63,192 nt of DNA from positions 1 to 63,192 of the IMG/VR virus record IMGVR_UViG_3300049261_000006. One strand, 5' to 3'. Under the pieces are notes generated by a model. The model did no database searches and was not told the DNA's origin. It saw only the letters and a list, made by a program, of their open reading frames with translations. The position numbers were made by a program, and so were the translations under genes. How positions within the stretch are numbered: position 1 is the stretch's first letter; each line of letters opens with the position of its first letter. This document shows positions 2,539-51,045 of this stretch, one piece after another. This stretch comes from a virus (lineage: Duplodnaviria > Caudoviricetes).

Positions 2539-3969
2539 ATGAATTTAATTGAAAAAGCAGTAAGTTTATTACCATTTCGTAATTTGGTACCAGACCCTAC
2601 CAGCAACCAAGTAATGATGGCCATGCAAGCCGGGGCCAGGCAAGATAGTTGGTTCAAGAATATGTTAAGCAAAGCGTTCAGCAGCTACATATCCGGTGAC
2701 TGGAAAATGGATGATTATATTACTAAGGGCTATGGTGGCAATACTGCCGTGTATACCTGTGTCAATATGATTACCAACAATTGCTCCCTGCCTACATTTA
2801 AGGTGTATGACGTCAGAGACGTTAAGAAGCATCTGCAGATAAAGGCATGGACTGGTGCTTCAGCCACAGCAGAAAGCATAGTACGTGCCCAGATGCTTAA
2901 AGAGATGGTATATTCTGAGAATACGGTACACCCGATGAATATACTGCTCGATAAGCCTAACCGGTATCAAACCCAGGCGGAATTTATCCAGACGTGTGCT
3001 GGTTTTAAGCTCATAACCGGCAACCGCTTCATGTTTGTCAATAAGCTGAACGCCGGCGCCAATGAAGGTAAGCCCACTGAGTTGTATAACTTGCCGCCAC
3101 AGCACATGACCATCATCGCTGACCGGCATATGTTCTCGGTGCTGGAATACCAATTCTTAGTAAATGAACAGCGCTTCATACCAGCAGAATATATACTACA
3201 TTCCAGGTATCCTAACTACGAATTTGACCAATACGGTAGTCATCTCTGGGGCATGTCGCCATTGCGTGCCGGTCGTCGTACGGTTACCCTTAGTTCTGGT
3301 GCAGAAGACCGTAGCGTGATCCTAATGGACACTGGTGGTGCTTCTGGTCTTATCTACAAGCGTGATGCTAAGATAGAACCAGACCCGGTTAAAAAGGCGC
3401 AGATCCGACAAGAACTTAATGAGACTATCAATGGCCGTGACTCAGCTGGTACGATCGCTATGGCCAATGGCGATATGGGATATATCAAGTTTGGCATGAC
3501 GGCCGCAGATTTGTCGCTTATTGAGTTAGAGAAATTCGCGAATGAAAAAATCGCAGGTCTGTACCGTATACCACCTGGATTACTACAAGCCTCGGCCAAT
3601 GCGACTGACAATAATATTGCGGCCTGGAACAAGCAGGTAATTACCAGGGCTGTTATCCCAGAACTTAACTCGATCCGCGAGGATTTGAACATGGTAGCCA
3701 AGATGTATGGCGATAACATATACATCGACTATGACCTATCAGTATTTCCAGAACTACAAGAAGATATGGCTGCTATCGCTACCAGGCTGGCCAACATGCC
3801 ATATTACACCTACAATGAAAAACGTGTCATGACCGGCGGCGATAAAGATCCAGATAATAAACTGATGGATAAATACTACGTAACTAGCAATACGATACCA
3901 CTGGAAATGGCTGGTACTGAGCAAATTCGTAGTGAGTTAGATAAATTTGACCCAGATGAGGAGAAGTGA
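2539..3969 (+). CDS. HK97-family portal protein
   Basis: AVYTCVNMI, LLDKPNRYQT, LITGN, GMSPL and IAGLYRIPP motifs; follows TerL. Confidence 0.93.
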   Translation: MNLIEKAVSLLPFRNLVPDPTSNQVMMAMQAGARQDSWFKNMLSKAFSSYISGDWKMDDYITKGYGGNTAVYTCVNMITNNCSLPTFKVYDVRDVKKHLQIKAWTGASATAESIVRAQMLKEMVYSENTVHPMNILLDKPNRYQTQAEFIQTCAGFKLITGNRFMFVNKLNAGANEGKPTELYNLPPQHMTIIADRHMFSVLEYQFLVNEQRFIPAEYILHSRYPNYEFDQYGSHLWGMSPLRAGRRTVTLSSGAEDRSVILMDTGGASGLIYKRDAKIEPDPVKKAQIRQELNETINGRDSAGTIAMANGDMGYIKFGMTAADLSLIELEKFANEKIAGLYRIPPGLLQASANATDNNIAAWNKQVITRAVIPELNSIREDLNMVAKMYGDNIYIDYDLSVFPELQEDMAAIATRLANMPYYTYNEKRVMTGGDKDPDNKLMDKYYVTSNTIPLEMAGTEQIRSELDKFDPDEEK

Positions 3970-4147
3970 TTTAGAACATGAACTGATGAAGATCGCCCGG
4001 GTAAAATATCCGATACTCCCTGGTGATTGCCCAAGGACTATATCCAGGAAAGGAAAAAACATGCTGATGTTTGTCCATTCACTAATGCCTATATTTGCTA
4101 ATCTCACTGACGCAGAAATATTCGATAAGCTAGAAAAAATTAAGTGA
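3947..4147 (+). CDS. Hypothetical protein
   Basis: ORF overlapping both neighbours. Confidence 0.5.
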   Translation: MTQMRRSDLEHELMKIARVKYPILPGDCPRTISRKGKNMLMFVHSLMPIFANLTDAEIFDKLEKIK

Positions 4148-4365
4148 TCATGAACGAATATGCAGTACAACACCTACAAAAAATTGTCAAAGACAAAAAG
4201 TTGTTTTTGAAAATAGCACAAGCTGATTTAGTTGGTGCCAAAGAAAAAGTGGCAACTGAAGAAGAAAAGATCTTGGTGCTAGAATCAGACATTAGAAAAC
4301 TAGAATATACTATTAGTCAACTTTCACCTACTACTGAGCCACTACCAGATCCAGGAAATTACTGA
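4144..4365 (+). CDS. Hypothetical coiled-coil protein
   Basis: Heptad-rich ORF coupled to the next gene. Confidence 0.55.
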   Translation: MIMNEYAVQHLQKIVKDKKLFLKIAQADLVGAKEKVATEEEKILVLESDIRKLEYTISQLSPTTEPLPDPGNY

Positions 4366-31226: not shown

Positions 31227-33551
31227 ATGGCAATGACTGATGAAGAATTAGACGATTTTATATCTACGTATTTTGGAACAGCCTCAGACGCTTTTGGCAA
31301 TAGCAGAATGCGAACTGTTCTTCGTGAGATCGTTGCAGATCAAAGCGAAAGTAGTGATTCAACCGGGGCATATTATGAAACGCGCGCTGACCTATTAACC
31401 GTGCGTCCAACTAGCAATACGCTCGCAGAAACGCTTGGATATTATGCAGCCAACGACGGTGGTGGCGGTAATTATTTTTACGATACAGAAAGTTTAGAAA
31501 CCTCAGATGGTTATACGATTATCACACCAACTACAGGTACCGGGGCCGGAAGATGGAAACTATTAATTACTGGAAACTATTTAAACGCACGCTGGTTTGG
31601 TGCAACAGGAGATGGCGACACAGATGATACTGTGTCACTTCAAGCGTTTCTAACGTACGGTACATATATACGGCGTGGTATGCGCCTAGAATGGCCTAAT
31701 GGTGTTTGTAAAACAACTGACACACTAACGATCGGTCAGGAAACTACACCATTCGACCCTTATAACGAAAATTCATTCTATTTATACGGTGCCGGTATTT
31801 CGTCTGATCCGAATCAAGCAACTCCGGACGGTAATCCTGGCACACAAATAAGATACTACGGCAGCTCAGTAGAGGCTATCATTTCCCTTCGCCGAGGCGT
31901 TTCCAGATACCAAGTGATGGAGGGATTTACCGTTGTATCAAATACCCGCGGAGCGGCTGACCACGGTATCCTATGGGATGATACAAGATTTAGTATGCCC
32001 ACATTAACAAGGGTACATTCACAAGCATGTAATAATTGCTTTTCTGTTGTGAGGTCTACCGGACTAAACGGAGAGTTTATCACATTTAATAAGTGTGGCG
32101 GTACAGGCGTACAGCGGTACTTTTATATGAATGATAACGAATTGACCGGTCAATCATTTGGACATAAGTTTACTCATAACAACATGGGAGTAGATGATGG
32201 AGGTACGTTATTTGAACTCGGAGGTAACGCCCTTGGATTTGGTATTACTCTTATAGACTGTCATTCATCAAGCATTGGAAGTTCAGCAGAGGTCAGTGCA
32301 CTACTTTCAGCTGGCACTTTGCAAGGAGTTACATTCCTTAAGAACAACGGCATCAGCGGATATTTCACAGATATAGACGGAAGGCATGAACATGTAAGTA
32401 CTATTATTGATAATTACTCTTCGAGCTACAACGAAGCAGGAAGGATAACTTTTATAGGAACTGAGTTCGATGGTATGATGAGCACAGTTGCGCGTCCTGT
32501 TATCAGAACTACAGGTGGTTTTGCTGGCAACTATGCCGTATCTTTTGAAAAGTGTAGCTTAAATAGGTTTGGTTTCGGTTATGAAGAGGACAGTGTTTTT
32601 CATATATCGCTTAGTCACATTGACGCAACAAAGTGGAAATTTAAAGATACACTGATAAATTTCTATTCGGTTGATATTGGCCAGACATGGTTCAGTAGAA
32701 TTGAATTTGAAGACTGTGACATGCCGACTGGCGGAAGAGTGCAAACAATTTCAAATCTTACCGAAAGGGTAAAAGACCTCAGTACTCGTTCATCAATTAG
32801 TAATATAAGACAAGCACAAGGCAGACCCAGGAACTTATTAAGACATTCAGGATTTACGGTTGATAGCGTAACTGCACCCGCGCCATGGGTGCAAAGTGCC
32901 CCGTTTGCAGCAACTGTTAAAGCATTTCCGCACGCAGATGTTGCATCGTGGACATCTTCTCCTAACGCAAGGTTAATAACCTTGGCTGCAGGCGCATATG
33001 TCTATCAAGATATTGACGAAATAAATTTTCAAACTGGTAATCCTCACCAACCACTGTCCGGTCTTGTTACTGGATATTTTCAATGCCAAATTGGATTTAA
33101 TGGCGTAGAACAGTATACTATATTCGAATTATCGTTAGAAAATTCAGTAACTGGTAGAATATATCAAAAACGGCGGTTTAATTCGCCGGACCACGAGGTG
33201 ACATATAACGTTAATATGGTAGCGGTAGATACCGACCAAGCAGATTCACAAAAACTTCGTTTGCGTATTGCTTGTGTTTCTGGAACACCAACTGGACTGC
33301 GTTTATTTTCACCTATGATCACCGAAGATCCTTATACAGTATACGCGCCAACAGGTGCAGATCCAGTGGACTTTGTGCACTCATGGGATTTGAATACAGA
33401 ATTAGTTAGAGTGGATGGACGTTTCCAATTGCCATCTAAGCCGGATGCACAGGCTGGTGTATCAGATTTGCGCGGCGGCAAAATGTATTGGAATGGTACT
33501 GCACTTAAGGTATGGGATGGTTCAACCTGGAAAACAGTTACAATAAGTTAA
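31227..33551 (+). CDS. Tailspike / depolymerase with beta-helix
   Basis: GYYAANDGGGG..GRWK..NARWFGATGDGDTDDT motif; C-terminal MYWNGTALKVWDGSTW. Confidence 0.8.
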   Translation: MAMTDEELDDFISTYFGTASDAFGNSRMRTVLREIVADQSESSDSTGAYYETRADLLTVRPTSNTLAETLGYYAANDGGGGNYFYDTESLETSDGYTIITPTTGTGAGRWKLLITGNYLNARWFGATGDGDTDDTVSLQAFLTYGTYIRRGMRLEWPNGVCKTTDTLTIGQETTPFDPYNENSFYLYGAGISSDPNQATPDGNPGTQIRYYGSSVEAIISLRRGVSRYQVMEGFTVVSNTRGAADHGILWDDTRFSMPTLTRVHSQACNNCFSVVRSTGLNGEFITFNKCGGTGVQRYFYMNDNELTGQSFGHKFTHNNMGVDDGGTLFELGGNALGFGITLIDCHSSSIGSSAEVSALLSAGTLQGVTFLKNNGISGYFTDIDGRHEHVSTIIDNYSSSYNEAGRITFIGTEFDGMMSTVARPVIRTTGGFAGNYAVSFEKCSLNRFGFGYEEDSVFHISLSHIDATKWKFKDTLINFYSVDIGQTWFSRIEFEDCDMPTGGRVQTISNLTERVKDLSTRSSISNIRQAQGRPRNLLRHSGFTVDSVTAPAPWVQSAPFAATVKAFPHADVASWTSSPNARLITLAAGAYVYQDIDEINFQTGNPHQPLSGLVTGYFQCQIGFNGVEQYTIFELSLENSVTGRIYQKRRFNSPDHEVTYNVNMVAVDTDQADSQKLRLRIACVSGTPTGLRLFSPMITEDPYTVYAPTGADPVDFVHSWDLNTELVRVDGRFQLPSKPDAQAGVSDLRGGKMYWNGTALKVWDGSTWKTVTIS

Positions 33552-33567
33552 TTCAACAATTTATAGT

Positions 33568-34110
33568 ATGGTACAAGCAGAAATTAAACTTACAGCTGCA
33601 GTAGTTTCGGTATTAGTAATTGCAGTAATTTTATCTAATTTACCGAAACGTCGTAGACGTAATAAAACAGACGAACAATTTTATTTTTTATCACAGCAAA
33701 ACGCAATTATCATGACACAAGTAGAACAACTTAAACAAGCATCTACAGAACTGAGAGCTGAAGTAACTAACCTTCAGGGCGCATTGGACAAAGAACAAGA
33801 CCAAGTATCCAGGTTGTTACAAATCAATCGCGATACTGAAACCAGGTTAAATGAGACTATTGCAAGCCTGCAAAAACAATTGGCAGATGCTACAGATCCA
33901 GAAGCATTGCAATCTGTAATTGATGATCTTAACGCAACTAAAGATGCATTAAGAAATACAAAAGCAGATTTGGAAACAACAGTTGATGTAGCTGAAGAGC
34001 CACCAGTAGAAGAACCACCTGTAGAAGGTGAACAACCACCTACTGATGAACCTGTAGTGGAAGAGCCACCTGTAGAAGAAACTAATCTAAGCCGCAGACG
34101 TCGTTCTTAG
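33568..34110 (+). CDS. TM plus coiled-coil protein with Pro/Glu-rich tail
   Basis: N-terminal TM followed by RRRR, long heptads, EEPPVEE repeats. Confidence 0.65.
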   Translation: MVQAEIKLTAAVVSVLVIAVILSNLPKRRRRNKTDEQFYFLSQQNAIIMTQVEQLKQASTELRAEVTNLQGALDKEQDQVSRLLQINRDTETRLNETIASLQKQLADATDPEALQSVIDDLNATKDALRNTKADLETTVDVAEEPPVEEPPVEGEQPPTDEPVVEEPPVEETNLSRRRRS

Positions 34111-34138
34111 TTATATATGGGTTAGTAAGAGTTAAATT

Positions 34139-34170
34139 AAAACCACTCATTTCCATGGGTGGTTTTTTTT
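34139..34170 (+). terminator. Intrinsic terminator ending the late operon
   Basis: AAAACCACTCAT-TTCC-ATGGGTGG-TTTTTTTT. Confidence 0.85.
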
Positions 34171-34185
34171 ATCTATATTTGCTGT

Positions 34186-34263
34186 TACTCATTAGTAGTT
34201 ATGTAGAATATGTTTTATTAAGTTTTATTGTCGAAGGACCATTTCCATGGTCCTTTCTCTTTT
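34186..34263 (+). ncRNA. Candidate small RNA (own TATATTTG promoter and terminator)
   Basis: -7 box at 34174-34181; hairpin AAGGACCAT-TTCC-ATGGTCCTT at 34234-34255 plus pyrimidine tail; no ORF. Confidence 0.5.
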
Positions 34264-34264
34264 A

Positions 34265-34334
34265 TACTAAGAAGCCTCGATAGAAATCGAGGCTACCAAA
34301 CACGATACCCATATTATTACGGCAAAATCGCCGA
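34265..34334 (-). ncRNA. Candidate convergent small RNA / terminator of the tRNA operon
   Basis: Upstream TTATCTATATTAGCTGTT is 17/18 identical to 34169-34186; hairpin AGCCTCGAT-TTCT-ATCGAGGCT at 34273-34294. Confidence 0.4.
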
Positions 34335-34355
34335 ACAGCTAATATAGATAATTAT

Positions 34356-34428
34356 GGTGATATACCGGATTCGAACCGGCGCCATATGGACCACAACCAT
34401 GCATGCTAACCGCTAACACCAATACCAC
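34356..34428 (-). tRNA. tRNA-His(GUG)
   Basis: Cloverleaf GTGGTAT/ATATCAC, loop TT-GTG-GT, GGTTCGAATCC, discriminator C; CCA not encoded. Confidence 0.9.
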
Positions 34429-34430
34429 AG

Positions 34431-34501
34431 TTTTCGCGACTGGGTTCGAACCAATACCATTAGATCCAAATTCTAATATGCTACCGTTGCACTACGCGAA
34501 A
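34431..34501 (-). tRNA. tRNA-Gln(UUG)
   Basis: TTTCGCG/CGCGAAA acceptor, TTAGA-AT-TTG-GA-TCTAA, GGTTCGAACCC. Confidence 0.88.
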
Positions 34502-34567
34502 AAAAATGAAGGTTCCTCATGCGCAGCACGTTAATACTGCGCGCGAGTATACCTACAACTAAGCTCG

Positions 34568-34639
34568 TAGAGTAGACAGGATTCGAACCTGCGCAGTCTT
34601 GATCCCAAATCAAGGAGCCTACCGTTGGCCTACTACTCT
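34568..34639 (-). tRNA. tRNA-Pro(UGG)
   Basis: AGAGTAG/CTACTCT acceptor, CTTGA-TT-TGG-GA-TCAAG, GGTTCGAATCC. Confidence 0.9.
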
Positions 34640-34644
34640 AAATG

Positions 34645-34672
34645 AAAAACCCCACACAACGTGCAGGGCTTC
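34645..34672 (-). terminator. Attenuator terminator directly upstream of tRNA-Pro
   Basis: Minus strand GAAGCCCTGCAC-GTT-GTGTGGGG-TTTTT. Confidence 0.75.
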
Positions 34673-34694
34673 GTATAGTTATACAGCAATGCAC

Positions 34695-34745
34695 TCAGAT
34701 GGGAATATCCGGTTGCGGTTGCTGATGTATGTTAATAATTTTCAT
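34695..34745 (-). CDS. Leader peptide MKIINIHQQPQPDIPI
   Basis: ATG 5 nt after a TATATTTG box; six consecutive His/Gln/Pro codons matching the downstream tRNAs. Confidence 0.75.
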   Translation of the reverse strand: MKIINIHQQPQPDIPI

Positions 34746-34750
34746 GAGAG

Positions 34751-34758
34751 CAAATATA
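34751..34758 (-). promoter_or_regulatory. Bacteroidota -7 box (TATATTTG) for the tRNA operon
   Basis: Perfect TAnnTTTG; no clear -33 element. Confidence 0.7.
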
Positions 34759-34771
34759 GTACAAAAATTAT

Positions 34772-34833
34772 TTTGAAAATATTTTAAAATAAATTTTTTT
34801 ATATGGATAATATTATATTATTTTACTCCATCA
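34772..34833 (+). promoter_or_regulatory. Repeated early/middle promoter element (62 bp identical to 45742-45803)
   Basis: Exact duplicate; related copies at ~36594-36660, ~49511-49557, ~50198-50257 and weaker ones at ~36385, ~40250 and ~51070; always intergenic before gene blocks. Confidence 0.75.
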
Positions 34834-34855
34834 ATACAAACTTAATAAAACAAAC

Positions 34856-35182
34856 ATGCCCAGACCGCTTACACTGTCAAAATTTAAAACTGACATCGAA
34901 TATATCTTACCTGGTGTAACACTGGATGTGCTCAAGAGCAGCAAGGATAAATTTCACGCTTCAGTAGAAATTCAATTCGGTAATGGTCTTAATATAGTAG
35001 ATGTTGACCTACAAACAGCGTGTGAAACAATTGAAGACGTAGTAAAAGAATTTAATAAACGTGATTATCTACACATGTTGTTAAAAAAACCCAGTGGCGA
35101 TTTTATCTTGTTTATTACTTATCTTCGCAACCCGGTACCAGTATCTACCCAGAATTTATCATTAATAAAATACATACCATGA
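34856..35182 (+). CDS. Hypothetical protein
   Basis: 108-aa ORF after promoter repeat and A-rich leader. Confidence 0.7.
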   Translation: MPRPLTLSKFKTDIEYILPGVTLDVLKSSKDKFHASVEIQFGNGLNIVDVDLQTACETIEDVVKEFNKRDYLHMLLKKPSGDFILFITYLRNPVPVSTQNLSLIKYIP

Positions 35183-35496
35183 ACGTTAAAGCTAAATCAC
35201 TAGAACAATTTTTTGCAGATCACGTATTGCCAAAGGACGCGTCAACTGAAAGGAGAATGGATTCAAAATACGGCCGTTTTTTGACTAAAGAATTTTTCGT
35301 ACGTAAAGAGAAATTTAATGACCAAAACATTATGTTCCAGTTAGAAGACCGTACCTACGAAACAAATCAATTGGTTATGATAAATATGAACTACGACATA
35401 TTGCCGTATGACGATATACATTTCAGAGCGTTGCACAGAGATACATTCGTAGAAATGGCAGATCCGGCAACGGAATCAACAGGACTAAAATTTTAA
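35179..35496 (+). CDS. Hypothetical protein
   Basis: ATGA-coupled ORF. Confidence 0.7.
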   Translation: MNVKAKSLEQFFADHVLPKDASTERRMDSKYGRFLTKEFFVRKEKFNDQNIMFQLEDRTYETNQLVMINMNYDILPYDDIHFRALHRDTFVEMADPATESTGLKF

Positions 35497-35577
35497 ACCA
35501 CATATGCTGGGCTCAATGTATGATGTCGACCGGTAGACGAAAAATGCGGCGGGCCCAGTTCTTTTAAACCTTAAACC

Positions 35578-35697
35578 ATGAAAAAATTAATCGTAATACT
35601 TTTAATCACTATCTTTGCCAGCAGTTGTGTAGTATCAAAATACGATTGCCCGGGCAGTAAGATGGTAGGTTGTCAAGGATATAAACCAAGATATTAA
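35578..35697 (+). CDS. 39-aa lipoprotein (MKKLIVILLITIFASS|CVVSKYDCPGSKMVGCQGYKPRY)
   Basis: Type II signal peptide with Cys17; not in the ORF track. Confidence 0.65.
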   Translation: MKKLIVILLITIFASSCVVSKYDCPGSKMVGCQGYKPRY

Positions 35698-35778
35698 TAT
35701 TTTCGTTTGGCGGCCGACGGGGAACATCGGCCAAATTACGGATTGATCCAGGTTGGTAGTCTTACCGACCTGCTTTTT

Positions 35779-35850
35779 GGAGATATAGCTCAGTTGGTAG
35801 AGCAGCGGACTGAAAATCCGTGGTCCCTGGTTCGATTCCAGGTTTCTCCA
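35779..35850 (+). tRNA. tRNA-Phe(GAA)
   Basis: GGAGATA/TTTCTCC acceptor (one mismatch), GCGGA-CT-GAA-AA-TCCGT, GGTTCGATTCC. Confidence 0.92.
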
Positions 35851-36006
35851 CTCAGACGGTTTGAATCCGTTGGTTGGCCGACAATCTTGATGAAGGAGAG
35901 TTAGGCAGTTTAACTCACAAGGAAAGGAGATCATAGAACTCCAAAGTACTTGATACCAGTACTGCAGGTAGGTGCAGGGCCTGACGCGCGGGAAAGACCG
36001 CGACAC
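35851..36006 (+). ncRNA. Candidate structured RNA between tRNA-Phe and tRNA-Lys
   Basis: GC-richer spacer made almost entirely of consecutive hairpins (GACGG/CCGTT, GAGTTA/TAACTC, GGAG/CTCC, AGTACT/AGTACT, CAGG/CCTG, CGCGG/CCGCG). Confidence 0.45.
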
Positions 36007-36080
36007 GTCTTCTTAGCTCAGCTGGTCAGAGCACTACACTTTTAATGTAGGGGCCGATGGTTCGAATCCATCAGGGGACA
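36007..36080 (+). tRNA. tRNA-Lys(UUU)
   Basis: GTCTTCT/AGGGGAC acceptor, CTACA-CT-TTT-AA-TGTAG, GGTTCGAATCC. Confidence 0.92.
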
Positions 36081-36093
36081 CAAATTTATAGAT

Positions 36094-36384
36094 ATGAAAA
36101 GACATAGTAAATTGTTGTTGATAGTACTTATAATATTAATGTTAGCAGTACCGTATATGTGCTCAGCACAAACTGATAGTTTACTAAGTAATAGTCAGTG
36201 GACTACTTATAAGCGCGATACCATATTAGTATTAGTACTGCGCGTGCGCAATAAACCTGGTTATGTGCCACATACATGGGAGTGTTATAAAATAATCAAA
36301 CGCAATAATTATGTTTTTGAAGTGGAATACATAGACAAACAAAAGAAACCTATGCCGGATTTTAAAATAATTACTGAGCTATAA
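36094..36384 (+). CDS. Secreted hypothetical protein
   Basis: Signal peptide ending CSA|Q. Confidence 0.65.
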   Translation: MKRHSKLLLIVLIILMLAVPYMCSAQTDSLLSNSQWTTYKRDTILVLVLRVRNKPGYVPHTWECYKIIKRNNYVFEVEYIDKQKKPMPDFKIITEL

Positions 36385-36431
36385 TTTTTTAATTTAAAAA
36401 TATAATATTATCTTTATAAGAAAAGTTTTAT

Positions 36432-36596
36432 ATGGCAAAGAAGAAAACCGTGCACAAGGCTAATACAGCCATTACCCTAGACCCCACTGTTCTTGACGCT
36501 GGTAAAAAGAAAGCACACAAATTAATCCTTAGCTTTTCTGGCTATGTAGAAGAACTAATAAAATCAGATACTGAAAAAAAGTTTAAAAAAATCTGA
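36432..36596 (+). CDS. Ribbon-helix-helix DNA-binding protein (54 aa)
   Basis: NTAITLDPTVLDAGKKKAHKLILSFSGYVEELIK fits the Arc/CopG pattern; not in the ORF track. Confidence 0.65.
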   Translation: MAKKKTVHKANTAITLDPTVLDAGKKKAHKLILSFSGYVEELIKSDTEKKFKKI

Positions 36597-36755
36597 AAAT
36601 AAATTTTTTAGTTCGATAATATTATATTATCTTTACCGTATCAATACAAACTTAATAAAAACAATTTTTCTGAATGAAACCGCATGACGCACGTTGCTTG
36701 ACTATATATCTCAGCATAGCAACTATTACTATCATCTTATTTACAGTAGCATATT

Positions 36756-37016
36756 ATGAACATACTCGCTAAGGCAGATGAGATCGTTAACCAACGGTCT
36801 GAAGAAAAAGAACGTGAATATGGGCCAATGAATGAATCCATAGAACGGGCCGCAGTCATAGCATCTGAAATGAGAGGTATAACACTAACCGCTAACGATG
36901 TATTTGCAGTTATGATAGCAATTAAGTTATCACGCATCTCATTCTCAGATAAAGAAGATAGTTTCCTAGATGCAGTCGCCTATATGGGTGCCTGGAACAA
37001 TTATAAACGACAATAA
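36756..37016 (+). CDS. DUF6378-like protein
   Basis: ILAKADEIVN.R..EYG...IKLSR....EDSFLDAVAY motif. Confidence 0.7.
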   Translation: MNILAKADEIVNQRSEEKEREYGPMNESIERAAVIASEMRGITLTANDVFAVMIAIKLSRISFSDKEDSFLDAVAYMGAWNNYKRQ

Positions 37017-37491: not shown

Positions 37492-38012
37492 CGTACGAAC
37501 CACGCAAAATGATCTACATACAGCGTGAGTACGCGAATAAACCCGGTACTCACCGCTATGAACTACTAGTAGATTGGCCAAGAGATAAAAGCATACCTAC
37601 TAAACGAATATACTTTGTAGGGCTGAATCCATCATATATCTATAATCATAAAGTAGGACCAACACTACTTAGGATGATTAACTTGGCCACTCTATGGGGT
37701 TATAACGCGGTAGGGTTGATAAATGTGTATTCTAATATTACACCATACCCACGTGACCTAGTCTTTAACCCAGTAGAACACCTTAAAAACCTGGATCATA
37801 TATTGACATTAGAACGTGATATACCAATAGTATTTGCGTGGGGTAACAGTCCTGTTAAGACCAAAATAGAACCAGGTGAGATCATATCGCACTTTACTAA
37901 TCCGCAGTGCCTGGGCTATAATTTTGATAAAACACCAAAGCACGTACTAACATTATCTGTTAACACACCATTAATACCATATAAACCATATGTCACTAGA
38001 AACGATGGATGA
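37488..38012 (+). CDS. DUF1643 family protein
   Basis: FVGLNPS, PTLLRM...WGY, INVYS, IVFAWG, CLG..PKH motifs. Confidence 0.8.
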   Translation: MTYEPRKMIYIQREYANKPGTHRYELLVDWPRDKSIPTKRIYFVGLNPSYIYNHKVGPTLLRMINLATLWGYNAVGLINVYSNITPYPRDLVFNPVEHLKNLDHILTLERDIPIVFAWGNSPVKTKIEPGEIISHFTNPQCLGYNFDKTPKHVLTLSVNTPLIPYKPYVTRNDG

Positions 38013-38799
38013 GCACATACAAGAGCTACGGCTCAAAAAGAAACACTATAATACGACAGACCTGGACCCAGAGAGTACATTTGAGCGGCACGTATTTCAC
38101 CGGGACTTCCTGGCACATTTTCACCGGTGGAGTCATATCTTAAAGGTTGCCAAGAAAGACGACATCATAGTGGACTTTGGTTGTGGTTCTGCTAATCTTG
38201 CCGAGGTGTTGTATCGTAACCGGTTTAAGCCAAAAAAATATACCGGGTTTGATATACGTGAAAAGACCATTGCTATTGCCAAAAAGAAATTTGAAAAGGT
38301 GCCATGGGTGCATCTACGCACCGCGGACCTATTAGATGACGATCTGGATATGGGCTGGTCTAGCCTTAATGCAGATAAGGTCGTGTCATTCGAGGTCATA
38401 GAACATGTAGGAAAACAAAACGTAGACACGTTCCTGCAGAATTTCCGTGATTGTGGCCACTCAGACGCGACTTACTACCTGTCCACGCCCAACTACGACG
38501 AGAAAGTAGGTGCTGCGGACAATCATACCTATGACTCCGGCGATGGCCGCGGCAAAGCCGTACAGGAGTTCGAACATTTGGAATTGAAACATCATATCGA
38601 AAAGTATTTTGAAATTGCCGACATGTACGGTACCTTTGCCAGCGTCAAGGACTATAAGAAATTAATGAACCCGGCTGAGTTACAAATCTATACCCGACTT
38701 TCTCAGTACTATGATTCTAACGTGGTATCCAATTTAATGGCACCACTATTTCCATCACAATCCCGTAATACCTTATGGGTACTTAAACAAGGCATATGA
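37990..38799 (+). CDS. Class I SAM-dependent methyltransferase
   Basis: IVDFGCGS (motif I), YTGFDI, VVSFEVIEHV, YLSTPN. Confidence 0.9.
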   Translation: MSLETMDEHIQELRLKKKHYNTTDLDPESTFERHVFHRDFLAHFHRWSHILKVAKKDDIIVDFGCGSANLAEVLYRNRFKPKKYTGFDIREKTIAIAKKKFEKVPWVHLRTADLLDDDLDMGWSSLNADKVVSFEVIEHVGKQNVDTFLQNFRDCGHSDATYYLSTPNYDEKVGAADNHTYDSGDGRGKAVQEFEHLELKHHIEKYFEIADMYGTFASVKDYKKLMNPAELQIYTRLSQYYDSNVVSNLMAPLFPSQSRNTLWVLKQGI

Positions 38800-45509: not shown

Positions 45510-45746
45510 ATGGAACGCAAAGGCTTTTTAAAATCGCTAGCTACATTGGTAATTGCACCCAAGGCAATTGCGGTTACGTTAGCTGATGCGGTTACGTTAG
45601 CTGAACCGACTACTAAGAATGAATTTGAAAAAGCATTTACTCGCAGTCTGCCACAGTTCATGAAAAACAGCGTATACTATCAAATATCACCTGAAATGTT
45701 AGAAGATATTCCGTACCTAAAAAGCTATCTAGAAGAAATAATTTGA
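45510..45746 (+). CDS. Mini-protein with Tat-like N-terminus and capsid-like C-terminal peptide
   Basis: MERKGFLKSL; 18-bp tandem duplication at 45569-45604; VYYQISPEMLEDIPYLKSYL resembles MCP. Confidence 0.65.
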   Translation: MERKGFLKSLATLVIAPKAIAVTLADAVTLAEPTTKNEFEKAFTRSLPQFMKNSVYYQISPEMLEDIPYLKSYLEEII

Positions 45747-45829
45747 AAATATTTTAAAATAAATTTTTTTATATGGATAATATTATATTATTTTACTCCA
45801 TCATCAATCACAATTAAAACTTAAAAAAC

Positions 45830-49843: not shown

Positions 49844-50191
49844 ATGAAATACACACGTGAAAATTTTGTACTCCTCATAATTGTCTTCACCTACATAATT
49901 TTATTGATAGATACCAAGGTATTGGAGTCTCCAATAATTACTGGCCAAGGCACCATCGGTGATCCATATAGAATAATAGATACCGTACCAAAGCAGGATA
50001 CTGTTGCGTTCGATAGTTCAATAGTATCTAGCGGCGGTGGTATAGTATGGTTCATAGAGGATAATGATATTGACTACGGAGCTGATGGTACTGTGAAAGT
50101 ACACTACGACGATACTACATACATTTTTAAACGCAGCAAGAAACGACTACTACGCAGAGAAGATTTTGACAATGGTTTGTTAAGTCAATAA
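49844..50191 (+). CDS. Membrane-anchored hypothetical protein
   Basis: N-terminal TM; ITGQGTIGDPYRI resembles the GTGTxxxPY repeats in the fibre. Confidence 0.6.
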   Translation: MKYTRENFVLLIIVFTYIILLIDTKVLESPIITGQGTIGDPYRIIDTVPKQDTVAFDSSIVSSGGGIVWFIEDNDIDYGADGTVKVHYDDTTYIFKRSKKRLLRREDFDNGLLSQ

Positions 50192-50286
50192 ATATTTTTG
50201 AAAATATTTGAAAATAAATTTTTTAGTTTGAATAATATTGTATTATTTTACTTCATCAATCAAATAAACAATAAAACTAAAAAAAC

Positions 50287-50502: not shown

Positions 50503-51045
50503 ATGGGTACTAAAAAAATTGACATAAAAGGTAAGCACTATGGAAAGCTCCATGTGCTTACCACTTGGATGAGTACGGCCGGTAGAAAATCAAGATGGTT
50601 ATGCATGTGTGAATGTGGTGAGAGCAGAGTAGTACTAAGTGAACATCTGAGAAATGGCACTGTTACTAGCTGTAAAACATGCATGCCCAATAAAAATAAA
50701 AGCCACGGACTCAGTAAGAGTAGTACCTACATCTCATGGAGCAACATGATACAGCGCTGCACTAATCCGAACCACGACAAATATCATCTATACGGCGGCC
50801 GGGGTATTACCGTAGATCCACGGTGGTTAGAATTTAAGAACTTCTACGACGATATGGGTGACCGCCCAGCAGGCATGACACTGGATAAGATAAATAATTT
50901 CAAAGGATATTCGAAAGATAATTGCCGTTGGGCCGATTTATCTACACAGAACAGTAATAGAAGACCCTGGACACGCGTAGAAGACTTCGAAGACGTGGTT
51001 AATAATAACCAGTATAAACCGATAGACGGCGCAGAAGAGTTCTAG
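50503..51045 (+). CDS. HNH-type homing endonuclease
   Basis: WLCMCECG, W.NMIQRC.NP...Y..YGGRGI.V..RW..F.NFY.DMG.RP..TLDKINN..GYS..NCRWA. Confidence 0.88.
   Translation: MGTKKIDIKGKHYGKLHVLTTWMSTAGRKSRWLCMCECGESRVVLSEHLRNGTVTSCKTCMPNKNKSHGLSKSSTYISWSNMIQRCTNPNHDKYHLYGGRGITVDPRWLEFKNFYDDMGDRPAGMTLDKINNFKGYSKDNCRWADLSTQNSNRRPWTRVEDFEDVVNNNQYKPIDGAEEF

Follow-up and report, generated by a model that had tools for sequence, protein, structure and literature searches.

Codon-matched leader ORFs and predicted attenuators in front of phage tRNA genes

The presence of tRNA genes in phages has long called for an explanation, and compensation for codon usage, replacement of host tRNAs that are lost in the course of infection, and escape from tRNA-cleaving defences such as anticodon nucleases have been proposed. 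The tRNA arrays of mobile elements have been termed a putative anti-defence system (PMC12803027), and studies of phage and plasmid tRNA arrays deal with the same cargo, namely tRNA clusters, but address the function of the tRNAs and not the control of their transcription. The locus described here raises the question of what decides when such genes are transcribed. It is found in the viral record IMGVR_UViG_3300049261_000006, whose 63,192 nucleotides were analysed as a whole and are referred to as the window. Based on sequence features and modelled folds, we consider it likely that a leader-peptide (ribosome-mediated) transcription attenuator gates the tRNA-Pro, tRNA-Gln and tRNA-His genes of this phage.

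Layout of the tRNA locus and its leader

All features of the unit were placed on the minus strand by sequence inspection and ARAGORN, and they follow each other in the 5' to 3' direction of this strand as a TAnnTTTG box, a 16-codon ORF, a hairpin with a U-run and the genes for tRNA-Pro, tRNA-Gln and tRNA-His. ARAGORN and Rfam agreed on tRNA-Pro (anticodon tgg, 34567–34639), the predicted first regulated gene, on tRNA-Gln (anticodon ttg, 34430–34501) and on tRNA-His (anticodon gtg, 34356–34428), the last gene of the unit. The spacer between tRNA-Pro and tRNA-Gln (34502–34566, minus strand) folds into a stable hairpin with a U-run behind it (−24.9 kcal/mol, z = −3.8) and may serve in RNA processing or as a further terminator. 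A further hairpin on the minus strand, obtained by folding 34260–34355, lies 3' of tRNA-His (34273–34294) and probably marks the end of the tRNA transcript, and beyond it the terminator scan and folding indicated two potentially bidirectional hairpins at 34233–34256 and 34139–34166. Hairpins with a U-run are also present 5' of tRNA-Gln and of tRNA-Phe in the window, with no matched leader at these sites. An Rfam scan of 33000–37000 (E ≤ 1) returned five tRNAs and two weak matches to plastid families, which were antisense to tRNA genes.

The leader ORF consists of 16 codons and a TGA stop codon (34695–34745, minus strand; ATG at 34743–34745, TGA at 34695–34697) and was also selected by an automatic choice of the closest ORF 5' of the terminator. 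It is not preceded by a Shine-Dalgarno sequence and would be near-leaderless. The first-pass annotation had proposed that six consecutive His/Gln/Pro codons match the three downstream tRNAs, and this was borne out by the sequence together with the ARAGORN and Rfam predictions: leader codons 7–12 (34710–34727, minus strand) comprise one His, three Gln and two Pro codons, all of which the downstream tRNAs can read with their anticodons gtg, ttg and tgg. The probability of the run was 1e-5 for this one ORF under a null of independent residues and 1.5e-3 under an empirical null admitting any frame within 200 nt, and the leader's own tRNA set ranked first of 11 sets. The accompanying caveat that the peptide also contains five Ile codons, with no tRNA-Ile following, stands.

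A promoter-like −7 box that conforms to TAnnTTTG, the Bacteroidota consensus (34751–34758, minus strand), lies 5 nt 5' of the leader ATG, as had been claimed. The box alone is no commoner than chance: 79 occurrences were counted in the window, compared to an expectation of 72.7 ± 8.2. Promoters of the Bacteroidota type usually have a −33 TTTG as well, preceding the −7 element by about 19 nt. No TTTG was found at this distance from the window box, and the sole one nearby is located 3 nt upstream of it; two units of another phage (L015a and L015b, see below) show TTTG, 19 nt and then the box. The gap between a similar box and the first start codon downstream is 3–5 nt in phi38:1, two units of phi17:2, L015 and Gundel_1, and 20–31 nt in L012, L014, L129, L015a and the Ala unit of phi17:2.

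Alternative folds and the proposed switch

Folded to its energy minimum, the 106-nt leader combines a 1:2 stem with the terminator (−29.6 kcal/mol, z = −3.2, 1 of 200 shuffles as good). Segment 1 (34719–34724, minus strand) lies within the control codons and is predicted to pair with 34684–34689 when no ribosome is present. The terminator-like 3:4 hairpin (34645–34672, minus strand) contains 12 pairs including G-U pairs and a loop of 3 nt (about −15 kcal/mol), with the core stem at 34650–34668 and a run of five U at 34645–34649; it was not listed by a simple consensus terminator scan. As stated in the first-pass annotation, it ends 5 nt before tRNA-Pro. In the 2:3 antiterminator (34661–34694, minus strand), 34685–34694 would pair with the 5' arm of the terminator (34661–34672), leaving a small hairpin in between. 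Its 5' strand can form 8 bp and begins 16 nt after the last control codon and 1 nt past the stop codon, in agreement with the claim that segment 2 directly follows the stop codon. The three mutually exclusive pairings postulated initially are therefore all present in the folds, and their modelled register fits a ribosome-operated switch.

As long as the 3' arm of the terminator is not yet transcribed, the nascent RNA folds best into the antiterminator (−10.8 kcal/mol). When the ribosome was modelled as masking 13 nt past the A-site codon, a mask chosen by us, the predicted energy of the antiterminator was −14.2 kcal/mol with codons 5 or 7 in the A site, −10.8 kcal/mol with codons 9 or 11, −7.3 kcal/mol with codon 13, −2.3 kcal/mol with codon 15 and about 0 at the stop codon. 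The number of terminator 5'-arm bases paired upstream in these models was eight for A-site codons 2–12, seven for codon 13, three for codons 14–15, and zero or one for codon 16 and the stop codon. The stability of the antiterminator is modest compared to shuffled sequences (9 of 300 as stable). Because the full-length minimum-energy fold retains the terminator at most modelled ribosome positions, the switch must be a kinetic one.

From these elements we envisage the following course of events. The TAnnTTTG box would direct host RNA polymerase to initiate at the ATG or slightly upstream of it, and a ribosome would translate the 16-codon leader as the polymerase advances. If His, Gln and Pro codons are decoded fast, the ribosome would reach the stop codon and cover the strand starting 1 nt beyond it, which would allow the terminator hairpin to form and stop transcription about 100 nt into the transcript, before tRNA-Pro. 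If charged tRNA-His, tRNA-Gln or tRNA-Pro is scarce, the ribosome would linger on codons 7–12 and leave this strand free to pair with the 5' arm of the terminator, resulting in read-through of the polymerase into the three tRNA genes. With the new tRNAs, the leader would be decoded faster and the switch would close again, which amounts to negative feedback on decoding capacity. The shortage could originate from a mismatch to the codon usage of the host, from a loss of host tRNA during infection or from a tRNA-cleaving defence. The anatomy is also accounted for by a simple feedback between supply and demand, without the candidate counter-defence circuit suggested at first. The initial assignment of a trp/his-type attenuator sensing the decoding of His, Gln and Pro codons is supported by the predicted folds, their register and the codon match across phages described in the following.

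Codon-to-tRNA match in other phages

The arrangement of box, short matched ORF, antiterminator, terminator and tRNA genes recurs in the metagenomic phages L005, L012, L129 and L015, in the cultured Cellulophaga phages phi38:1, Calle_1 and phi17:2, and in Tenacibaculum phage Gundel_1. In L012/L014, L005/L011 and L129, a box, a short ORF containing a run matched to the array and, a few nt before the first tRNA, a terminator with a U-run were found. L015 contains three units (a, b and c), of which unit b has all seven amino acids of its array within 10 codons. One unit of phi38:1 shows 13 consecutive codons that are all drawn from the six amino acids of the array, and its second unit matches as well; both units are present in Calle_1. 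The two phi38:1 units lie at about 35,250–35,600 and 38,000–38,350 of the phage record. Phage phi17:2 contains three units, the first two arrays of which resemble those of phi38:1 (the units are referred to, in alphabetical order, as Ala, Pro and Tyr), and Gundel_1 contains one unit with a matched leader. The run in L129 retains a Trp codon, and no tRNA-Trp was found in its array. The leaders of other phages, like that of the window, carry residues outside the run that do not correspond to the array. The tRNA-Pro of the window belongs to a type, defined by its acceptor and T-arm, that is common to the first tRNAs of the L005, L012, L129 and L015b units; it was not found among 185,579 species genomes, and by sequence this shared type appears to be phage-only. 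A scan of viral contigs for a T-run followed by the first 8 nt of tRNA-Pro retrieved 117 stretches, one of which was L005. Analysis of the 116 new loci with ARAGORN showed 115 chance matches in AT-rich DNA, and the sole real tRNA was that of L129.

The rule of taking the ORF with the stop codon nearest to the terminator picked ORFs in other frames in L005, L015b and the Pro unit of phi38:1, and it was replaced by a frame-agnostic score for the statistics across phages. This score considers any frame within 200 nt and was compared to a null of 6610 segments of real sequence. With all failures included, 7 of the 11 units reached p < 0.05, and the Fisher p was 1.1e-7 over all of them, or 2.1e-5 without the three phi17:2 units; these values apply to units that were chosen while being looked at and to score penalties set by us, and the empirical p values of single units are only 1e-2 to 1e-3. 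The leader's own tRNA set ranked first in five of the 11 units and second in two more, behind one identical and one overlapping set. The four non-significant units were L015a (0.084), L015b (0.35), L015c (0.55) and the Phe/Lys cluster of the window (0.81). A covariation of leader codons with tRNA content had been set beforehand as a test of the proposed attenuator, and it was observed in at least five phage lineages, with the Fisher p of 1.1e-7 over the 11 units.

The predicted switch geometry also recurs: in 12 of 12 units examined, the 5' arm of the terminator pairs upstream when the modelled ribosome is inside the run, and 0–2 arm bases are paired when it is at the stop codon. At later codons, the arm regains some upstream pairing in the phi17:2 Tyr unit and, to a lesser extent, in L015b. 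Using the best-scoring ORF of each unit, which was our choice, none of 300 shuffles was as stable as the antiterminator in L015a, phi38:1 Pro, phi17:2 Tyr and Gundel_1, compared to 1 of 300 in L015c and phi17:2 Ala, 3 of 300 in phi17:2 Pro, and 2 of 300 in L015b (none with the stall set at codon 11). The antiterminators of L012 (43 of 300) and L005 (40 of 300) were not significant.

The codon-matched design in front of phage tRNA genes is not universal. No matched leader was found at the Phe/Lys cluster of the window (p = 0.81), and we rejected this cluster as an instance of the same switch: the upstream 39-codon ORF (35578–35697) resembles a small lipoprotein signal and is not enriched in Phe or Lys codons. 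The design was not seen in two or three further sub-arrays of phi38:1, in LoVEphage, in the crAss-like cr130_1, in Flavobacterium phage immuto, at the Pro array of Gundel_1, in L009 and L010, or in any of the three proteobacterial phages examined, and the gaps within the arrays of L012 and L005 revealed no further leader units.

The features of the window could also arise if a chance, untranslated ORF happened to lie beside a plain terminator serving as an insulator against stray minus-strand transcription, or if the hairpin were a structured 5' leader aiding the processing or stability of the pre-tRNA, the codon run being a coincidence in either case. This explanation gains from the hairpins with U-runs that precede tRNA-Gln and tRNA-Phe without a matched leader (p = 0.81 at the latter cluster), from the chance-level frequency of the TAnnTTTG box, from a leader with no Shine-Dalgarno sequence and only 5 nt between box and ATG, and from the empirical p of the six-codon run of only 1.5e-3. 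Relatives of the window phage that might show conservation of the ORF were not found either: a DNA search of the phage collection with 34300–34900 gave no match, a search of viral contigs with the neighbouring proteins (108, 180 and 174 aa) gave none, and a 43-nt tRNA-Pro pattern had no matches. However, a chance ORF leaves unexplained why short ORFs at the same position are enriched in codons of their own array in at least five other phage lineages, and why the strand pairing with the terminator arm begins just 3' of the matched run in each case. Moreover, the terminator 5 nt away leaves no room for a separate promoter in front of the first tRNA, and the tRNAs must therefore arise by read-through. 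We regard coincidence as improbable.

Alternatively, the leader may be translated and act otherwise, by shielding the RNA from Rho or RNases, by affecting pre-tRNA processing or through a function of the peptide itself, in which case the codon match would reflect the use of phage tRNAs and not sensing. The C-terminal halves of the L005, L012 and L129 leaders are conserved at the peptide level, which favours such a role, as do the continuation of the L015a ORF for about 30 codons beyond the matched run and the annotation of several such ORFs as hypothetical proteins in phage records. Yet this conservation, in L005 and L012, falls on the very sequence that pairs with the terminator arm, and where phi38:1 and phi17:2 have the same tRNA set, their leaders agree in composition but not in order, which argues for selection on the codons and not on the peptide. 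A canonical hairpin with a U-run and a competing pairing are also present in every supporting unit, and we judge a different action of the translated leader to be very unlikely. 

With regard to attenuation, we see a slightly better than even chance that Bacteroidota phages possess a general class of tRNA-demand sensors, in which each sub-array would be preceded by a leader written in its own codons and by an antiterminator and terminator, and would be transcribed only when the decoding of these codons falters. Such sensors would respond automatically to a loss of host tRNAs, including that caused by anticodon nucleases.

Relation to known attenuators

To our knowledge, all leader-peptide attenuators described so far regulate either enzymes of amino acid biosynthesis or aminoacyl-tRNA synthetases. 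The thr and ilv leaders sense more than one amino acid, and pheST with pheM represents a leader-peptide attenuator in front of aminoacyl-tRNA synthetase genes. The trp, his, pheA, leu, thr and ilvGMEDA attenuators of Proteobacteria likewise have their control codons in a run within a short ORF (in part after PMC2965389). They share with the phage unit the 1:2, 2:3 and 3:4 pairings, an intrinsic terminator and an outcome decided by the position of the ribosome, which in the phage case is modelled. Whereas these systems regulate enzymes and feed back on an amino acid pool, the phage unit has tRNA genes behind the terminator, and its products would feed back on decoding speed. It further differs from them in being phage-borne and near-leaderless behind a Bacteroidota-type box, and the related phage leaders would monitor up to six or seven amino acids.

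A His leader precedes hisS paralogues in bacilli (PMC2965389). In the pheST and hisS attenuators, a part of the translation apparatus is likewise regulated by stalling on cognate codons, but these control the charging enzyme, whereas the phage unit would control tRNA genes and would do so for several amino acids jointly. T-box riboswitches also sense the supply of charged tRNA and switch between terminator and antiterminator; unlike the phage leader, they bind uncharged tRNA directly and need no translation. A T-box or another known RNA family was rejected for this locus, as none appeared in the Rfam scan of 33000–37000. An attenuator at E. coli tRNA-Phe genes was considered as a possible precedent and also rejected, as the upstream region of pheV contains no leader ORF. 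No description of a demand-sensing control of phage tRNA transcription was found in the literature searched. Codon-matched attenuation is thus known in kind, and tRNA genes as its target are probably new.

If the attenuator operates as proposed, the supply of tRNAs in these phages would be set by demand instead of being constitutive, and the leader sequences would reveal which codons matter to each phage. Leader-peptide attenuation would extend to tRNA targets, to viruses and to Bacteroidota, and would include single leaders that monitor as many as six or seven amino acids. The switch would be testable in culture, using Cellulophaga baltica with phi38:1 or phi17:2, or Tenacibaculum with Gundel_1; RNA-seq of C. 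baltica infected by phi38:1 has been published (PMC5335546). Several phage genes now recorded as coding for hypothetical proteins would be re-annotated as leader peptides.

Leader, tRNA genes and their setting

The unit on the minus strand of the window consists of a promoter-like TAnnTTTG box found by sequence match (34751-34758), a start codon 5 nt behind it (34743-34745), a leader ORF of 16 codons with a TGA stop at 34695-34697 (34695-34745), and a hairpin with a five-U tail, supported by sequence and folding (34645-34672), with 5 nt between it and tRNA-Pro(tgg) (34567-34639). This gene is followed on the same strand by tRNA-Gln(ttg) (34430-34501) and tRNA-His(gtg) (34356-34428), and all three were called by ARAGORN and Rfam. 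The layout upstream of tRNA-Pro had been proposed in a first-pass annotation made from the sequence alone, and it matches the sequence base for base. Leader codons 7-12 (34710-34727, minus strand) are consecutive putative control codons, one for His, three for Gln and two for Pro, and every one of them is readable by the anticodons tgg, ttg and gtg of the downstream tRNAs. The TAnnTTTG box alone is not evidence, as the motif was found 79 times in the window vs. 72.7 expected; TTTG at the usual -33 distance from the box is absent. Between tRNA-Pro and tRNA-Gln, the 65-nt spacer (34502-34566, minus strand) folds into a stable hairpin (-24.9 kcal/mol, z = -3.8) with eight U in a row behind it; this may be a second terminator within the unit, or else a signal for processing.

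The window, a virus record of 63 kb, is complete and has its genes almost all on the plus strand. On one side, the tRNA unit is flanked by the end of a tail-gene block, and on the other by a promoter-like repeat, both on the plus strand. This AT-rich element of about 40-70 nt is present in three copies (34770-34835, 45730-45800 and 50190-50260; 90-91% identity over 35-41 nt), the first of which is divergent from the tRNA leader. Copies 1 and 2 lie directly 5' of plus-strand genes starting at 34856 and 45830, and the third lies between plus-strand genes, one ending at 50191 and the next starting at 50503; the phage probably uses the element as a promoter at all three places. The large terminase is nearest to those of phages of Bacteroides and Phocaeicola (35% identity), soil metagenomes contain DNA of the phage itself or of near kin, and no close relatives were found in the collections searched.

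Match of leader codons and tRNA arrays

The acceptor and T arm of the tRNA-Pro are unusual; they recur in other viral and metagenomic contigs but gave no exact match among 185,579 bacterial and archaeal species, represented by one genome each. From its sequence, this tRNA type looks like a phage-only tRNA lineage. Using tRNA similarity, we also found cultured phages for comparison. The same layout recurs in these loci: a TAnnTTTG-like box is followed by a short ORF and then by a hairpin whose U-run stops a few nt short of the first tRNA, and in each ORF there is a codon run that matches the amino acids of the tRNAs behind it. Five units resemble the window in having the first start codon 3-5 nt behind the box, a spacing that suggests near-leaderless transcripts. 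One contig, L015, contains three units (a, b and c), two of which (L015a and L015b) show a full promoter of TTTG, 19 nt and TAnnTTTG, and in the L015b leader a minimal covering window of 10 codons takes in each of the seven amino acids of the array, Trp, Cys and His among them. A single leader family precedes three different arrays in the contigs L012/L014/L013, L005/L011 and L129; one variable position in it is Gln, Arg or Leu, and Arg occurs only where the array has tRNA-Arg(acg). A counter-example to strict matching is L129, which keeps a Trp codon in the run with no tRNA-Trp found in its array.

Among cultured phages, Cellulophaga phage phi38:1 has 13 consecutive codons all drawn from the six amino acids of the array behind them (Pro, Glu, Gln, His, Leu, Arg), and the counterpart in phage Calle_1 has 14 array-matched codons in a row; a second unit in both phages precedes Lys, Ile, Gly, Met, Asp and Thr. 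Cellulophaga phage phi17:2, which belongs to a different genus from phi38:1, has three units, and Tenacibaculum phage Gundel_1 has one. For the Pro/Glu/Gln/His/Leu/Arg set, the phi17:2 and phi38:1 leaders are equal in composition and different in order, which points to selection acting on the codons rather than the peptide.

For the window ORF alone, the run has p = 1e-5 under an independent-residue model with His, Gln and Pro making up 9% of residues. Under a harsher empirical null, in which the top-scoring run over 200 nt, whichever of the three frames it lies in, is compared with thousands of real 200-nt segments, p is 1.5e-3. We applied this null to 11 units (window Pro, L012, L015a/b/c, two of phi38:1, three of phi17:2, and the Phe/Lys cluster of the window), and seven reached p < 0.05. 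The others were L015a (0.084), L015b (0.35; 3.8e-3 on a set-coverage measure), L015c (0.55) and window Phe/Lys (0.81). With these failures counted, the Fisher combined p is 1.1e-7, and it is 2.1e-5 without the three phi17:2 units, the first two arrays of which resemble those of phi38:1. The covariation of leader codons with tRNA content across phage arrays, set as a comparative test by the first-pass annotation, is borne out. When each of the 11 leader regions was scored against all 11 tRNA sets, the own set ranked first in five and second in two more, once behind an identical and once behind an overlapping set.

Modelled ribosome switch

The free 106-nt leader of the window folds into the 1:2 stem and the terminator, both as previously claimed (-29.6 kcal/mol, z = -3.2; equalled by 1 of 200 shuffles). 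To model the switch, nascent RNA was folded without the 3' arm of the terminator, and the ribosome masked everything up to 13 nt past the A-site codon, a footprint which is our assumption. The predicted antiterminator (2:3 pairing) begins where it had been placed, right after the stop: the strand at 34685-34694 starts 1 nt past the stop codon and pairs in silico with the terminator 5' arm. Eight arm bases are paired upstream for A-site codons 2-12 (-10.8 kcal/mol at codons 9 and 11), seven in a weaker structure at codon 13 (-7.3 kcal/mol), and 0-1 at codon 16 and the stop, with an energy of about 0. The minimum-energy fold of the full-length leader retains the terminator at most ribosome positions, so the switch would have to be kinetic, as it is in the trp attenuator.

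This register recurs in all 12 units examined: the 5' arm pairs upstream while the modelled ribosome is within the matched run, and only 0-2 arm bases are still paired with the ribosome at the stop codon. We compared 11 units, leaving out the phi38:1 Lys unit, with 300 shuffles each of the intervening sequence. Antiterminators as stable were obtained in 0/300 for L015a, phi38:1 Pro, phi17:2 Tyr and Gundel_1, 1/300 for L015c and phi17:2 Ala, 2/300 for L015b (0/300 with the stall set at codon 11), 3/300 for phi17:2 Pro, 9/300 for the window, 40/300 for L005 and 43/300 for L012. Some upstream arm pairing returns at later codons in phi17:2 Tyr and, more weakly, in L015b, and the L015a ORF extends about 30 codons past its matched run.

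Probable attenuation logic and neighbouring observations

The sequence anatomy, the alternative pairings with their register and the match of leader codons and arrays across lineages are shown here, and sequence and modelling together make it likely that the window unit represents leader-peptide attenuation of tRNA transcription. For such a system, we infer a transcription start, leader translation, ribosome-polymerase coupling and conditional read-through. The signal would be the decoding speed of the array's own codons and the output the tRNAs, which together would constitute negative feedback on decoding capacity. Counter-defence is one possible use of this putative sensor; a sensor of such kind cannot distinguish tRNA loss from lack of an amino acid. 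The logic of the trp, his, thr and ilv leaders is that of leader-peptide attenuation. The phage tRNA leader shares it with these and with leaders before synthetase genes and shows the structural features of the family in silico, but differs in the class of gene regulated. Among the leaders before synthetase genes is a His leader upstream of hisS paralogues in bacilli (PMC2965389). No description of tRNA genes under leader-peptide control, whether in phages or in other settings, was found in the full-text literature searched, the scope of which excludes older scanned or subscription papers, and the phi38:1 transcriptome paper makes no mention of such control in its passages on tRNAs (PMC5335546).

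The matched-leader design is absent from the Phe/Lys cluster of the window, LoVEphage, crAss-like phage cr130_1, Flavobacterium phage immuto, the loci L009 and L010, the phi38:1 sub-arrays Val-Arg and Phe (Ser-Ser-Asn is weak), and all three proteobacterial phages examined (Acinetobacter Acibel004, Sinorhizobium ort11 and Pseudomonas ZC03). In the window, tRNA-Phe and tRNA-Lys lie directly behind a terminator-like hairpin; upstream is a plus-strand ORF of 39 codons (35578-35697) with a lipoprotein-like signal, followed by two hairpins, the second of which (35749-35772, plus strand) has a T-run 6 nt before tRNA-Phe. The design is also absent from the Pro array of Gundel_1 (locus L141), where an HNH endonuclease gene (3293-3859) occupies the place of leader and terminator in other phages and ends inside the annotated tRNA-Pro heading this second array.

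Annotated as hypothetical proteins, gp066 of phi38:1 (locus L016, 1254-1361) and gp077 of phi17:2 (locus L019, 4443-4562) are the leader ORFs of two tRNA units. In phi38:1, ARAGORN also calls a tRNA-Pro and a tRNA-Glu that are not annotated and lie under the CDS annotated as gp071 (4142-4300). For Calle_1 (locus L018), ARAGORN positions are 53 nt below the locus coordinates of the annotation table (e.g., tRNA-Lys, 5507 vs. 5560). Directly after terminators, tRNA-like sequences missed by ARAGORN were found in Gundel_1 (2562-2705; two sequences with 27.8 and 25.7 bits in the Rfam tRNA model, threshold 29) and phi38:1 (about 1440-1520 and 2925-3015), and their anticodons, read by eye, would be Tyr and Trp, and Cys and Tyr, respectively. 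ARAGORN likewise does not call tRNA-like genes in L006 (1730-1865) and L007 (5810-5945, minus strand) that have the same acceptor and T arm as the window tRNA-Pro but carry an extra 60-70 nt or so mid-gene; an intron or some other interruption of the tRNA may account for this.
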